The notes beneath the pieces are model-generated. The model did not search any database. It worked only from the letters and a program-made list of their open reading frames with translations, and was not told where the DNA came from. The translations under genes were made by a program, and so were the position numbers. From an uncultured cyanobacterium (GTDB lineage Bacteria > Cyanobacteriota > Cyanobacteriia > Cyanobacteriales > CAWCAG01), in assembly GCA_963803805.1 (NCBI GenBank), contig CAWDOD010000003.1:320001-384000 (forward strand): a DNA stretch of 64,000 nt, read 5' to 3'. Positions within the stretch are counted from its first letter, which is position 1, and each line of letters starts with the position of its first letter. Of this stretch, positions 53,093 to 58,431 are shown in pieces.

Positions 53093-55669
53093 TTACTCTG
53101 GCGCTGTTATGGGAACTGGCGCTGGGGCTGGGGCTGGAACTGGTTTCGATTGTTTTTCAATTGTAGGAGGTGGAGCGGGGGCTGGGGCTGGAGCGGGGGC
53201 TGGGGCTGGAACTGGGGCTGGAACTGGGGCTGGAGCCGGCGCTGGTCTTGGTGCGGGTGCAGGTGCTGGAGCTGGCGCGGGTCTTGGTGCGGGTGCAGGG
53301 GCTGGAGCTGGTCTTGGTGCGGGTGCTGGAGCTGGAGCCGGCGCTGGTCTTGGTGCGGGTGCAGGGGCTGGAGCCGGTGCGGGTCTTGAACTACCTTGGT
53401 TGCTCCTACTATTACCGCTATTTCCTTGGCTAGGCTGAGAGCGACGTTTAGGTTGGGAATTGGAATTAGAACCAGAATTAGAAGTAGAGCGCCTACGGCT
53501 ATTACTAGAACCAGAGCTAGAACTTTTACGGCTTCTGCTTTGACTGCTTTTTTTGTAATACTGTTTTTTGGGCTTAATGGGTTTAGCTTTAATCGTACCT
53601 TCGCGGCCTTCCAATTTATCAGGAAGCTTAGGGAAATCTGCTTTAGGTAAATCTTCCACGGCTTCCCCCATAAATCTACTCCAGGTGGCTGCTGCAGTGC
53701 CGCTACTGGCGTAAGTAGATTTATTATCATCATTACCAAGCCAGACCCCAGCAACTAATTGAGGTATGTAGCCAATAAACCAAAGATCCTTTTCTTCATC
53801 AGAGGTTCCTGTTTTCCCAGCTACAGGTCGGTCTATTTGGGCTGGTGAAGCTGTACCATAAGTTACGACCCCTTGGAGCATCCAAGTCATGATAGCGGCG
53901 GTATCTTTGTCTAAAGCCCGTTCTTTTTTGAAGTCAGCTTTGTAAATCACCTCACCATTTTTATCAAGAATGCGATTAATACCACGGGGCGGAACGTGCA
54001 TTCCTTTGTTGGCTAGGGTTCCGTAGGCACTGGTTAATTCGAGGAGATTAACTTCAGAAGAACCTAGTGCCAAAGAATAGGTTGGTTTTAGTTTAGACTT
54101 GATACCCATTTTTTTGGCAATTTCGATGGTTGGCTCCCAACCCACATCAACCAAGGTGCGAACAGCCACAACATTAAGGGAATAGGCGAGAGCATCCTTG
54201 ATAGATACATAACTACCGCGATACTTATCATCGTAATTTTCAGGTTGGTAGCCAGCGACAACATAGGGTTGATCTAGAACACCTTTATAAGGAGAAAAAC
54301 CTGCGGCGATCGCCGTGGAATAAACAAAGGTTTTGAAGGTGGAACCGGGCTGTCTTTGGGCTTGGGTAACGCGATTAAATTGATTTTCGTCAAAGTCTTT
54401 CCCTCCCACCAAAGCCCTGATTTTCCCATTGCGGGGGTCAATGGCTACTAAAGCCGCTTGATCAAAACGTTGACTCTTACCTTGATTTTCTAGGGTTTTA
54501 GTAACGGTTTCTTCCGCTATTTGTTGCCATTCTGGGTTAAGAGTAGTTTCTACGGTTAAGCCCCCAACTTCGATTTGTTCTGAGGAGACGTATTTAGGCA
54601 ATTCTTTTTGGATATAACTGGTGAAGTAAGGGTATTTCCGATTGAGGCGTTTTGGTTCACTGTAGTCTGTTCTTAAACGAGAAGCGATGGCTTTTTCGGC
54701 TTCAGCTTCGGTAATAAAACCCTCTTTTTCCATTTGCCGCAAGACAACATTACGGCGCTCTTGGGCCAACTTTTTATTCTCTAAAGGAGAATAAGCTGTG
54801 GGTGCTGGGGCTAAAGCAGCGATGGTTGCTGCTTCAGGGAGGGTAACTTCGTCAATTTCTTTACTAAAATAAACCCAAGCAGCATCCCCAACACCATAGG
54901 CTCCCGAACCTAAATAAACTAGATTCAGGTAACGTTCCATAATTGTCCCTTTCTCGAATCTGCCTTCGATTTTATTCGCTAAGCGCATCTCTCGTAGCTT
55001 GCGCCAAATTTTCTGTTCTTGGTTGAGAAAGACAATACGGGCTAGTTGTTGGGTAATAGTACTTGCTCCTTGGACAACATCCCCAGATTGAAAGTTAGAA
55101 AAAGCCGCTCTCAAAACACCTTGAAAATCAACGCCATGATGTTTTTCAAAACGCCGATCTTCACTAGCGATAAAAGCTTGAACTACATCTTGAGGAATTT
55201 CTTCAATATCTAACTGATCATGGGTTGTGGGGCCAACTTCTTGCAATACACTACCGTCAGAAGCAGTGATTTTCAAGGTTCCTTCACGGGCATAGGTTAA
55301 AACATCATCAACAGAAGCAGGCAAACTTTTCTCAATTTTCCACCAACCCCAGCCCAAAAAGATTAAACCCGTAGTAAAACCGACACCAGCCCCTAAAGCT
55401 AACCAAAAACGGGGGCGATTTTGCCAGGGATGATCTCCAGTAAAGGGGCGAACTACTTTTGTTTTTAGTTCAGCAGCTTTGGTTTTAAATTTTTGGAAGT
55501 AATCTTTAACTGGTGTTTCTCCCTGCCTATTTGTTTCTGCTGCTAATTCTTGTTCCTCAGTCTTTGACGGGACATCACCAGATACGGCTTTCGGATCTGT
55601 GGATGTCGAGTTAGAAGGTTGCTTACTCGACATATTTTTTAATCTGAACCTAGAAATGAACTTTTGCAC
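53093..55669 (-). CDS. Class A penicillin-binding protein (PBP1A family) with Ser- and Pro/Ala-rich tail
   Basis: EDRRF.HHG, GASTITQQL, SxxK (GSTFK), SLN and KTG motifs. Confidence 0.93.
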   Translation of the reverse strand: MQKFISRFRLKNMSSKQPSNSTSTDPKAVSGDVPSKTEEQELAAETNRQGETPVKDYFQKFKTKAAELKTKVVRPFTGDHPWQNRPRFWLALGAGVGFTTGLIFLGWGWWKIEKSLPASVDDVLTYAREGTLKITASDGSVLQEVGPTTHDQLDIEEIPQDVVQAFIASEDRRFEKHHGVDFQGVLRAAFSNFQSGDVVQGASTITQQLARIVFLNQEQKIWRKLREMRLANKIEGRFEKGTIMERYLNLVYLGSGAYGVGDAAWVYFSKEIDEVTLPEAATIAALAPAPTAYSPLENKKLAQERRNVVLRQMEKEGFITEAEAEKAIASRLRTDYSEPKRLNRKYPYFTSYIQKELPKYVSSEQIEVGGLTVETTLNPEWQQIAEETVTKTLENQGKSQRFDQAALVAIDPRNGKIRALVGGKDFDENQFNRVTQAQRQPGSTFKTFVYSTAIAAGFSPYKGVLDQPYVVAGYQPENYDDKYRGSYVSIKDALAYSLNVVAVRTLVDVGWEPTIEIAKKMGIKSKLKPTYSLALGSSEVNLLELTSAYGTLANKGMHVPPRGINRILDKNGEVIYKADFKKERALDKDTAAIMTWMLQGVVTYGTASPAQIDRPVAGKTGTSDEEKDLWFIGYIPQLVAGVWLGNDDNKSTYASSGTAAATWSRFMGEAVEDLPKADFPKLPDKLEGREGTIKAKPIKPKKQYYKKSSQSRSRKSSSSGSSNSRRRSTSNSGSNSNSQPKRRSQPSQGNSGNSRSNQGSSRPAPAPAPAPAPRPAPAPAPAPAPRPAPAPAPAPRPAPAPAPAPAPRPAPAPAPVPAPVPAPAPAPAPAPAPPPTIEKQSKPVPAPAPAPVPITAPE
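53100..53385 (-). repeat. (PA)n / RPAPAPAPAP coding tandem repeat
   Basis: Repeated gctggtcttggtgcgggtgc units on the plus strand. Confidence 0.9.
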
Positions 55670-56082
55670 CTCAACTCCTCAGACAAACCACCAATGACCC
55701 TGACTTGATGTTTTTCTTTTTCTTAGTTTCTTTGTCTAGAAATACCACGATATTTCAAAAATAGTAACTTAAAATCTATTTTTACTGACTTTGAATTAAA
55801 TATGAAGTAGCAGAAAACACAGACAGTTTTTGGCTGAAGATGTTCCTGGCGAAGGGGCAAACTAGGTTTTTTTTGAATCTACTCAACAATCTGAAAAGAA
55901 TTAAAAAAGCCTTTAATGCTCTTAGGTCAGTATTGCTCTTTATCTGTAAATACTACTAATTGATCTAAACGCTCATTAAAGAAGAATACTCTATATAAAA
56001 AATAAGGTGGTAAAAAAAATTTCTTTTTCATGTTTCTTTGATTTTTCAAGTCGAAGGGCGCAACAACTGTTACGCCCGTTTC

Positions 56083-56472
56083 TTATTCCTGGACGACAGA
56101 AGCCTCGATTTGAGCTTCTTCCCAAAGTTTAAAGAGATAGAACTCAGCGTGATCACTCATGGTGCAGACGAAGATACCTTCCTCGCTTCCCGGCTCACTT
56201 ACTAACCAAGTGCCATTTAAGCTCACCTCAACACAGTCAGCATCACACAGAGAAAGAGTGACAGCATCCGGGTTTTCCTGCTCTACTATGGCTTCAAAAC
56301 GAACTAGCTGGGGTAAATCCGCCGGCAATAGAAAAGAAGCAGCGCTAGGCTCCACATAGAGGTTTGTAGCAGCCCTAAGAGCTAAAAGTACTCTTGTTAA
56401 TACCCACTCTTCTAAGGGTTGAGCCAAACGTTCTAAATAAAAACCGTTTTCAGTATAAGTTAGTTTCAGCAT
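56083..56472 (-). CDS. Alr0857-family hypothetical protein
   Basis: MLKLTYTE, RVLLALRA, EPSAASFLLP and GTW..EEGIFV motifs; lies downstream of the HNH gene. Confidence 0.8.
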   Translation of the reverse strand: MLKLTYTENGFYLERLAQPLEEWVLTRVLLALRAATNLYVEPSAASFLLPADLPQLVRFEAIVEQENPDAVTLSLCDADCVEVSLNGTWLVSEPGSEEGIFVCTMSDHAEFYLFKLWEEAQIEASVVQE

Positions 56473-56486
56473 TTATCATTATCCTG

Positions 56487-57017
56487 TTATTCCAGGTGTT
56501 TTTGCCGTTCCCAGAACTTCTCAGCAAAGGTGATTGCAGGGTGAAGGGGGGCTTTGGGTTTACTCTTGAGAATCAAGCCTGCTTCAGTGGGAGTGCGACT
56601 GCCTTTTTTAGAGTTACATCCCTCGCAGGCAGTTACTACATTGTCCCAAGTGTGTTTTCCGCCTTTTGAGCGAGGGATGACATGATCCAAGGTTAGTTTT
56701 TTGTTGCTGTCGCAGTACTGGCAGCTATGGCGATCACGCCGCAATACTTCTCGCCGATTTACTGGTGGGACTTTCCAAACCCTCTCTGCACCATTAATCG
56801 TTAAGCGAATGTGGGCAGGAACTTGGAAAATTGCCCTAGCTGAGCGGATTTCCCAAGTATTGCCAGCAAGAAAAGTTACTGGTTCTGCTTTACCTGTAAC
56901 CAAAAGAACAATGGCTCGCTTGATGTTAATGCGACTAATGGGTAGGTAGTTTTTAGAGAACACCACTACCGATTGGCTTAGTATGGCTGTTGGGTGAATT
57001 TCCGTTGTATTTGTCAC
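56487..57017 (-). CDS. HNH endonuclease (McrA-like)
   Basis: RD...CQYC, TLDHVIPRSKGG and NVVTACEGCNSKKG motifs. Confidence 0.93.
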   Translation of the reverse strand: MTNTTEIHPTAILSQSVVVFSKNYLPISRINIKRAIVLLVTGKAEPVTFLAGNTWEIRSARAIFQVPAHIRLTINGAERVWKVPPVNRREVLRRDRHSCQYCDSNKKLTLDHVIPRSKGGKHTWDNVVTACEGCNSKKGSRTPTEAGLILKSKPKAPLHPAITFAEKFWERQKHLE

Positions 57018-57061
57018 GGTTTTACCTCTTCAGTAATTGAAGCTTGGCAGGTAGTTTACAC

Positions 57062-57098
57062 ACAAAAACCCCCGCTTCTTGGCATTTGAGCGGGGGTT
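57062..57098 (-). terminator. Intrinsic terminator / attenuator upstream of the HNH gene
   Basis: Minus-strand RNA AACCCCCGCU-loop-AGCGGGGGUU followed by UUUGU. Confidence 0.8.
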
Positions 57099-57145
57099 GG
57101 AAAAACTTTTTCAGATTTTCTTTTATGTTTGGTACAGTTTTGGCT

Positions 57146-57385
57146 TCATGTCTGCCTGTACCTCCCGCTTCTTTGATTTAGTTTTGAATCTCGAATTTCT
57201 AAACTATGAATGCTTTCTAACCAATAATTTTCCTCGGTATTAGGTTGTTCTTGCTTGATTTCCAAGCTGCTTGTTAAAGCGGTGAAACAACCTATAAAGG
57301 CAAAATCCACTCCCATTCCTGCTAATTTCCTGGGGGGGAAATTGAAAGCAGGTTTGGCAGTGGAGATGGTAGAAAGAAGTTTCAC
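57146..57385 (-). CDS. 79-aa putative leader ORF of the HNH operon
   Basis: GTG start with an AAGGA SD; its 3' end duplicates the 3' arm of the downstream terminator. Confidence 0.55.
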   Translation of the reverse strand: MKLLSTISTAKPAFNFPPRKLAGMGVDFAFIGCFTALTSSLEIKQEQPNTEENYWLESIHSLEIRDSKLNQRSGRYRQT

Positions 57386-57423
57386 AGAATTCCTTGACTT
57401 AAATTACTCAAAGGGACTTTTTA

Positions 57424-57452
57424 ATACTACACTTGTATTACCCATATGTCCA
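57424..57452 (-). promoter_or_regulatory. Promoter TGGACA-17-TAGTAT overlapping a TrcR-type operator (GTAATACAAGTGTAGTAT)
   Basis: -35 at 57452-57447 and -10 at 57429-57424; the motif resembles the recalled TrcR operator. Confidence 0.65.
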
Positions 57453-57475
57453 CTATTTGGAAGGAGAAAATTTTT

Positions 57476-57811
57476 ATGCGTACCCTAACTCGCACTTCAA
57501 CAACTGATATGGAAGTTACTAGTATTCGCTTGGAGAGGGCGCTTAAGGACAAGTTGAAAGAACTTGCAGGCAATCAGGGATACCAAGCTTTGGTTAGGGA
57601 TATTCTCTGGAATTATGTCCAACTTAAGTCGGGAGAGTATCGTCCCCAATTTTCCCGTTCTGATATTCGAGCTAGCTTTGATGGGGTTGCCCAGAGAGAT
57701 GAATGCTGCGTACTAACAGGTAAGTTTATGTCCGAAGGGGAACCCATTTTACTCGGACTCACTATCAACGGTGACTTAGTTCCCTTAAGCCCAGAGAGCT
57801 TAGCTGGCTAG
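57476..57811 (+). CDS. trcR: Ribbon-helix-helix repressor TrcR (All0854-like)
   Basis: MEVTSIRLERALKDKLKE..GYQALVRDILW RHH; SD AAGGAG; divergent from the HNH/alr0857-like genes. Confidence 0.8.
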   Translation: MRTLTRTSTTDMEVTSIRLERALKDKLKELAGNQGYQALVRDILWNYVQLKSGEYRPQFSRSDIRASFDGVAQRDECCVLTGKFMSEGEPILLGLTINGDLVPLSPESLAG

Positions 57812-57820
57812 AAAATAAAA

Positions 57821-57848
57821 GGAGGGGCTATAATTATATAGCCTCTCC
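57821..57848. terminator. Terminator between convergent trcR and apcF
   Basis: GGAGGGGCTATA / TATAGCCTCTCC stem; the upstream A-run gives a U-tract on the minus strand. Confidence 0.7.
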
Positions 57849-57921
57849 CTCTGACAAAAATACTCAACCAAAAAAGCAAACCCTACACTGATTCAATGAA
57901 TATTGAACATTGATCACTGAG

Positions 57922-58431
57922 TTAAAGGTCTTTTTCCCCAAAGTCGCGGGTTAGATGCTCAAAAGGTTCATCAATAAATGATGTATCCTCTACACCAGCC
58001 TCTGCAACCATATTTTTAACCATGGTTTTAACAATCTGGATACCATAAACTGTTGGTCCGATGGGAACTCCTAAAGAATTATAGGTTTCTCTTAAACCCT
58101 GTAAGACTCGCTCATCAAGGATGTTGGTATCTCCAGCTATTAAGGCATAGCTAGCATAGCGCAAGTAATAGTCCATATCCCGCAAGCAAGCAGAATAGCG
58201 GCGAGTGGTATAAGCATTTCCTCCCGGACGAATTAATTCTGGTTGCTCTTCAAATAGTTGCAGTGCAGCTTCTTTGATAATAGAGGCAGCATTACCGCTA
58301 ATCAATTCTGCGGCTTTGATTCTTGCTTGACCTGATTCAAAGTATGATTTCAGGCTATCCATGGCATTGCGGTCAAAATAACGACCAGCAACATCATAAT
58401 TTTTAATTAAACTTGTGACGGCATCCCGCAT
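57922..58431 (-). CDS. apcF: Allophycocyanin beta-18 subunit
   Basis: MRDAVTSLI start and RPGGNAYTTRRYSACLRD; divergent from glnA. Confidence 0.95.
   Translation of the reverse strand: MRDAVTSLIKNYDVAGRYFDRNAMDSLKSYFESGQARIKAAELISGNAASIIKEAALQLFEEQPELIRPGGNAYTTRRYSACLRDMDYYLRYASYALIAGDTNILDERVLQGLRETYNSLGVPIGPTVYGIQIVKTMVKNMVAEAGVEDTSFIDEPFEHLTRDFGEKDL

Follow-up and report, generated by a model that had tools for sequence, protein, structure and literature searches.

What would a transcription terminator be doing between a promoter and the genes that follow it, with a long open reading frame (ORF) in front of the hairpin? The question is raised by one locus in the window, by which we mean the whole 64,000-nucleotide stretch of DNA from an uncultured cyanobacterium that was analysed here. 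On the minus strand of this locus, a TrcR box and promoter are followed by a 79-codon ORF, a predicted terminator, a gene for an HNH endonuclease and a gene of the alr0857 family, with trcR itself divergent. The corresponding regulon in Anabaena (asr0855-alr0856-alr0857, and all8564 with its trn array) is repressed by TrcR and induced by chloramphenicol (PMC10272220, PMC8421152). A sequence-only reading of the locus had proposed that the ORF and the terminator form a translation-coupled attenuator beneath TrcR repression. We find translation-coupled attenuation of some kind very probable here, and the more specific reading, a ribosome-controlled attenuator in which slowed translation permits read-through into the HNH and alr0857-family genes, a good deal better than an even bet. 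The element appears to be a conserved and apparently undescribed cyanobacterial variant of ribosome-mediated attenuation, an attenuator layer that would be added to the known control by TrcR.

The locus and its parts

The features of the locus are as follows.

57446..57811, plus strand: trcR, ribbon-helix-helix repressor gene, divergent from the leader; start codon uncertain; weak Pfam RHH_4 match (E 0.048)
57424..57441, no strand assigned: TrcR operator, covering the leader -10 hexamer; 18/18 match to the motif of PMC10272220
57424..57452, minus strand: sigma-70-like promoter, TGGACA-17-TAGTAT, by consensus match (8 such sites in the region against 8.0 expected)
57146..57385, minus strand: leader ORF, GTG to TGA, 79 amino acids; positional equivalent of Anabaena asr0855
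57282..57385, minus strand: hairpin H1, a long 5' hairpin over the first third of the ORF, from folding; candidate pause hairpin
57160..57173, minus strand: segment A, predicted antiterminator strand in the last codons of the ORF; a near-copy of the terminator 3' arm, with the pairing part at 57169-57160
57131..57162, minus strand: hairpin B:C, 57162-57156 with 57137-57131, from the consensus fold; the window's stop codon lies in its loop
57062..57098, minus strand: predicted intrinsic terminator; 5' arm D at 57098-57089, 3' arm E at about 57078-57067, U tail to about 57063
56487..57017, minus strand: HNH endonuclease gene, alr0856 equivalent; Pfam HNH_5, E 5e-17; product 69.5% identical to All8564 of the Anabaena tRNA-array plasmid
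56083..56472, minus strand: alr0857-family protein gene; NCBIfam NF045647, E 1.5e-49

The order and coordinates given by the sequence-only reading, from promoter through ORF and terminator to the two genes, proved correct throughout. Transcription of the leader would start near 57417. The exact match to the 18-nt motif suggests that the window operator is bound by TrcR, binding itself having been demonstrated in Anabaena only; the motif occurs with no mismatch in 102 of the 129 loci that carry the element (see below). The terminator hairpin has a folding energy of -18 kcal/mol and is followed by five U residues; a hairpin pattern scan did not list it, since its loop exceeds the 8-nt limit of that scan. 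Further along the window, at 53093-55669, a gene recognised from its sequence as penicillin-binding-protein-like carries a long Pro-Ala repeat tail.

Relatives of trcR are present in 97 of the 301 genomes searched. The 170 trcR loci examined comprise 90 of these 97 genomes together with the best 80 of 283 from named genome contigs, a Nostoc-rich set that may overlap the first, and related loci are not independent. An HNH or alr0857 gene lies downstream in 137 of the 170, and both A and the terminator were detected by script in 129 of the 137. Among the eight loci that the script missed, L011 carries the element, L005 has a diverged one, L143 is without A, L164 is degenerate, L167 and L168 have the terminator only, and L133 and L172 have neither part; L167 and L168, where A is unrecognisable, may use another antiterminator or be constitutive. 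Loci below 80% similarity to one another gave 45 representatives, of which 42 were used for comparing leaders (leaving out L025, L156, and L151, where the script had picked the frame wrongly) and 44 for the RNA alignment (leaving out L025). In two related genomes (L025 and L030) a long insertion interrupts the leader, parting promoter from terminator.

A reading frame that is kept and a peptide that is not

In 124 of the 129 element loci, no stop codon interrupts the S-G-R-Y frame of segment A over 150 nt or more upstream. Another frame is open across A in three (L012, L137 and L147), and the frame is broken in two, L025 with its long insertion and L156, where the terminator is weak too. A long frame thus crosses A in 127 of 129 loci, the chance per frame being 0.042; among the 45 representatives, 40 have the S-G-R-Y frame open, three another frame, and two a broken one. 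Counted from the first position of A, all 127 stop codons lie at +9 to +42; no frame closes ahead of A or inside the terminator. The stop is at exactly +36, just past strand C, in 99 of 124 loci and in 25 of 40 representatives. The window leader stops at +21 because of an insertion in the loop of B:C, and is one of 16 loci with stops at +9 to +21 that retain the element.

The encoded peptide behaves very differently. Leaders range from 65 to 136 amino acids, and that of the window is 1-35% identical to the 41 others in the set of 42 representatives. A tblastn search with the window peptide found no relative in 29 other trcR loci, and the peptide has no Pfam match, only a sub-threshold match to Vsr. 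Even within A, every codon shows non-synonymous change at some locus: S to R; G to R or A; R to G, W, Y or K; Y to C, F, W and others. Since the frame and the position of the stop are kept while the peptide diverges, translation up to and across A appears to be what is selected.

Could the leader peptide nonetheless be the sensor? The sequence-only reading had noted the absence of any run of a single amino acid, and this stands: the longest run in the window leader is two, and all 20 amino acids occur in it. The median leader among the 42 representatives likewise contains 20 amino-acid types, and no amino acid is strongly enriched across them (glycine 8.1% against 5.3%). A different proposal, that the C-terminal S-G-R-Y is an arrest peptide sensing a specific ligand, would account for the presence of these residues in frame in 124 of 129 loci; each of the four is, however, replaced non-conservatively in some loci with the pairing largely kept, and A is read in another frame at three, and we regard such a peptide as very improbable.

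Pairing of the leader RNA

The sequence-only reading had pointed to a 10-nt repeat, which is indeed found at 57164-57173 and again at 57071-57080, and had proposed that the upstream copy pairs with the 5' arm of the terminator as an antiterminator. The pairing of A with D is possible as 6 bp, a bulge and 3 bp, and the predicted nascent fold uses only the 6 bp; the proposed picture was also incomplete in that it missed the nested hairpin B:C. Within the window leader alone the complementarity of A and D is modest, being equalled in 39 of 1000 dinucleotide shuffles. When the 398 U-tailed hairpins of the genome are ranked by their best partner 30-100 nt upstream, the terminator comes second, and among the 52 with equally GC-rich arms it comes first.

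The alignment of 44 representatives shows how these pairings have been maintained. In the terminator, D:E, 92% of cells are paired, with 17 double changes, a result reached by none of 500 shuffles. For A:D, 86% of cells are paired against 45-56% for slid controls. The duplicated motif thus keeps its pairing in orthologous loci, but covariation is weak, because A and D barely vary: on five measures, 4, 30, 100, 31 and 35 of 500 shuffles did as well (30 for the pair count and 35 for the score). At two loci, L162 and L146, matched changes occur in A, D and E together. Hairpin B:C is 72% paired over the nine pairs tested, two of them poorly kept, and does not stand out from shuffles (22-309 of 500).

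In the consensus fold, an RNA that ends at D forms A:D with B:C nested inside it, and an RNA to which E has been added forms B:C and D:E. The window alone folds likewise, its nascent form having the 6 bp of A:D with B:C nested. Across loci, 41 of 43 nascent RNAs cut at D are predicted to form A:D, and the count is the same for naked RNA and for RNA carrying a ribosome mask 90 nt upstream; on complete RNA, D:E wins in 42 of 43. Since the terminator wins on the complete RNA, the switch must be kinetic. With the RNA exposed to 5, 4 and 3 nt short of the end of the stem, A:D beats D:E in 40, 37 and 29 of 42 loci, and masking A at these same points gives a median of 3.8, 5.7 and 7.0 D:E pairs against 0.1, 0.3 and 1.9 unmasked; these are equilibrium folds of shortened RNAs with crude ribosome masks, which stand apart from kinetics.

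Where would a ribosome have to be in order to matter? One alternative holds that the attenuator answers to a different input, namely a ribosome dwelling at the stop codon, which would cover C and free all of A for 9-11 bp with D, so that the operon opens on slow termination or recycling and B:C serves as an anti-antiterminator. The stop at exactly +36 in most loci, just past C, is what such a device would call for, and a mask on the stop raises the median number of A:D pairs from 7.0 to 8.4. The median energy gain is nil, however, the value being the same as for naked RNA (-9.9 kcal/mol); A:D already forms well on naked RNA with B:C nested; and the 16 loci with early stops keep the element even though a terminating ribosome would cover much of A. 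We consider this alternative unlikely. With the stop masked, A:D is still possible in 34 of 43 loci, and therefore passage of the ribosome over A, rather than parking at the stop, must matter in most of them. That a terminating ribosome simply covers A can be true only where the stop is early, as it is in a minority of loci. The window is one of these, and its masked fold varies with the footprint assumed (-7.9 or -1.9 kcal/mol, against -11.1 for the naked RNA).

Two further features of the leader RNA deserve mention. The inner stem of H1 begins about 20 nt past the start codon and is followed by a U-rich run, and similar hairpins are seen in several relatives; H1 has a z score below -2 in only 13 of 42 representatives. 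A pause at H1 could let a ribosome load. Just before arm D, after an A-rich spacer, there is a T-rich stretch, at 57099-57107 in the window and also in relatives (about two thirds T at -3 to -6), which may signal a pause or form a weak third hairpin.

Linkage to the downstream genes, and mobile copies

If the element acts on the genes that follow it, it should be found where they are. A single pattern finds the element in 123 of the 137 trcR loci with the genes and in 2 of the 33 without them, and of these two matches one is on a truncated contig and the other was judged spurious by eye. This distribution indicates that loci lacking the downstream genes have lost the element too and, with the copies described below, that it travels with its cargo and acts in cis. 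It bears also on the proposal that the leader RNA acts in trans, or that a protein, small RNA or ligand sets the choice between A:D and D:E, translation being incidental. The leader does fold far better than shuffled sequences (z -5.5), and the element occurs in RNA-repair and tRNA-array contexts. Yet loci that lack the downstream genes hardly ever carry it, a strong H1 is confined to those 13 of 42 leaders, and the open frame is under clear selection; moreover, an Rfam scan of 55600-58000 gave four chance-level matches, the best at E 0.43 and none near the gathering threshold. We judge this proposal quite improbable.

Copies of the element are also found away from the main trcR locus. A degenerate pattern matches 45 places in 41 of the 301 genomes, with none for the reversed control; it is too strict to find the window itself, and therefore gives no prevalence. 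Six of these places are away from the main trcR locus, and all six show the same design, with operator-like sites and a long frame ending at +33 or +42; downstream lie HNH (as fragments in two) or alr0857, and tRNA arrays follow in three. Seventeen plasmids encode proteins 65-72% identical to the window HNH, and the same leader was found in all eight plasmid loci read, with the stop at +30 or +33. Among these is the all8564 locus of pCC7120delta, where an ORF of about 72 codons, absent from the plasmid gene table, lies upstream of all8564 (L183, NC_003273.1) with A, B:C and a terminator. No second copy of the element was found in the window's own genome, and the HNH has no match in a phage collection at E 1e-25.

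The plasmid locus speaks to a simple way in which the whole scheme could fail, a promoter for HNH of its own downstream of the hairpin. The all8564 promoter sequence mapped by 5'-RACE (supplement Fig. S9) matches, on comparison by eye, the DNA just upstream of the leader, so the all8564 message starts before the terminator, which is evidence against such a downstream promoter at this paralogous locus. The trn operon has its own promoter; the switch would therefore gate the HNH gene, not necessarily the tRNAs.

The downstream genes are themselves subject to loss. HNH is often deleted or truncated while the leader and alr0857 remain (L016, L020, L026, L028, L042, L043, L056, L121 and L135), and the tRNA arrays present the reverse; 14 of the 129 element loci are without an N-terminal HNH match. 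Second trcR-like genes, apparently broken, lie beside decayed HNH genes at L181 and L182, with a tRNA array after the latter.

Where HNH is present, its catalytic and zinc motifs are evidently intact, the zinc-finger cysteines and the DH..N..N motif being invariant in 36 sequences. An identity as an RNA-guided nuclease of the IscB/HEARO type was rejected, as only positions 184-268 of the 314-position model match, scoring 58 bits where the cut-off is 175. For Alr0857 a confident alpha/beta model was obtained (pLDDT 92), but no match to solved relatives was found by sequence profile, Foldseek or VIA-align (best Z 4.7). Its language-model neighbours include WapI-like immunity proteins (Atlas, 0.91-0.92); that Alr0857 might be a nuclease inhibitor paired with HNH is a lead only.

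Expression of the Anabaena regulon

Anabaena PCC 7120 has all0854 (trcR), asr0855, alr0856 (HNH) and alr0857 in the same order, according to the accessible parts of the published record. The gene asr0855, placed between trcR and alr0856 by its locus tag, is 252 nt long and listed as a hypothetical protein; its equivalence to the window leader rests on position and on length, 252 nt being that of the Nostocaceae leaders here. As given in the same parts of that record, asr0855, alr0856 and alr0857 rise 7-9-fold in a trcR mutant without antibiotic, and asr0855 and alr0857 are among the chloramphenicol-induced genes. The RNA-seq values for asr0855, alr0856 and alr0857 are 23.4, 97.1 and 46.8 in the wild type and 214.6, 701.5 and 397.1 in the trcR mutant, and all8564 is also up 17-fold without drug. 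The leader is thus not in excess over HNH in either strain, which means that the terminator is leaky in unstressed cells, or that a short structured leader RNA is under-counted or lost from the library.

These data favour in part a simpler explanation, in which the hairpin, as a constitutive and leaky terminator or as a stem that stabilises the RNA, keeps leader and HNH message in a constant proportion, TrcR is the sole regulator, and the ORF encodes a fast-evolving small protein. All three genes go up by a similar factor in the trcR mutant with no surplus of leader, the TrcR repeats by themselves, when transplanted, made a promoter inducible by chloramphenicol (PMC8421152), and some residues are common to the leaders of Nostocaceae. 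Equal fold changes are, however, expected from derepression under either model, and it is difficult to see why a fixed terminator would be accompanied by intact frames, those of the frameshifted loci included, that end just past A, or by the complementarity of A and D. This explanation too we hold to be unlikely.

Public RNA runs, all 23 of them in the form of contigs, carry no weight here; four were compared with a Nostoc locus (L091). One contig each from X5 and X9 bridges the terminator, and X1 and X2 have no cover there; depth in X5 is greater over the leader than over HNH, although contig depth cannot rank the parts and DNA may be present.

The words attenuation (or attenuat-) and terminator are absent from the main texts of PMC10272220 and PMC8421152, and a literature search, with subscription papers mostly outside its reach, found no description of this element. 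The accessible text of PMC13613805 treats premature termination for resistance genes only, and that of PMC12642595 reports cyanobacterial termination to be poorly explained. Within the sources accessible to it, the search also found no measurement of transcription-translation coupling in cyanobacteria.

A model for control by the ribosome

The original proposal of a translation-coupled attenuator under TrcR is supported by the conserved frame and stop position with an unconserved peptide, by the complementarity that A retains to D at a fairly fixed distance across loci, and by the linkage in cis to the cargo. A sequence of events consistent with these observations can be suggested. First, TrcR would repress the promoter and translation stress would relieve it, as others have shown in Anabaena and as the exact operator implies for the window. 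Second, the conservation of the frame suggests that the leader is translated. Third, when no ribosome is at A as D exits the polymerase, A:D is predicted to form, aided by the nested B:C, and to keep D:E from nucleating during the passage of the polymerase over the U tract. Fourth, a ribosome that keeps pace would occupy or unwind A and B:C within that interval, such that D:E forms and transcription stops. Output would then need derepression and slow ribosomes together.

The sequence-only reading had cast the leader as a general sensor of ribosome stalling, and both this role and the direction of control would follow from the steps just given. With some 80 codons covering nearly all amino acids, the leader would be a general test of ribosome speed, and not a sensor specific for an amino acid. 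Perhaps the element is best seen as a 'ribosome speedometer', widespread and mobile: the time that a ribosome takes to cross an all-codon leader would decide termination, and together with TrcR the element would make a two-key gate on HNH both in the chromosome and in horizontally moved tRNA arrays; we offer this broader picture tentatively, as somewhat short of an even chance.

If the model is true, the ribosome and the polymerase of this Rho-less phylum keep functional time with one another, and a leader that reads the progress of the ribosome directly would be a second, likely faster input into the same response. The element would also offer a ready reporter of translation stress and a genetically simple test of transcription-translation coupling in cyanobacteria, with both loci present in the model strain Anabaena PCC 7120. 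In addition, asr0855, now listed as a hypothetical protein, would become a regulatory leader, and all8564 would gain a leader that had escaped annotation.

Comparison with known attenuators

The whiB7/wblC attenuator of Actinobacteria, for which the primary paper is said to be that of Lee, Lee and Roe in 2022, shares much of the design proposed here. In the accessible accounts a long, variable upstream ORF (uORF) is combined with an antiterminator and a terminator, and translation stress opens the switch (PMC10274678, PMC12421871). As far as these accounts go, both systems place a terminator, here a predicted one, between the promoter and the first structural gene; both have an antiterminator that is mutually exclusive with the terminator, as A:D and D:E are predicted to be by their sharing of D; both have a long uORF, variable in length and sequence, that overlaps the antiterminator; and both are paired with control at the level of the promoter. 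In whiB7/wblC, slow translation leads to read-through in a broad response to translation stress, a trait that the cyanobacterial element would share. The likeness drawn here is one of design: in Cyanobacteria the partner is the repressor TrcR instead of an autoactivator, the cargo is HNH and alr0857, B:C is nested within the antiterminator, and the leaders have no marked amino-acid enrichment save that of glycine (8.1% against 5.3%).

The classical amino-acid attenuators trpL, hisL and leuL, in the available description (PMC10274678), likewise have a mutually exclusive antiterminator and terminator with translation of the leader as input. An attenuator of the trp/his/leu type was nonetheless rejected for this locus, where the leader of 79 amino acids is much longer, the longest run is two residues with no run of regulatory codons, and the usual distance from the first position of the antiterminator strand to the stop is 36 nt. 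The attenuators of the ARE-ABCF genes (vmlR, vgaA, lmrC and tiaA; PMC12421871) also combine a uORF with a terminator/antiterminator switch, theirs opened by inhibited translation. The uORFs in the accessible account of that group have 3-9 codons, with stalling at or near the start in the presence of particular drug classes, whereas the cyanobacterial leaders have 65-136 codons and the predicted switch lies at their 3' end.
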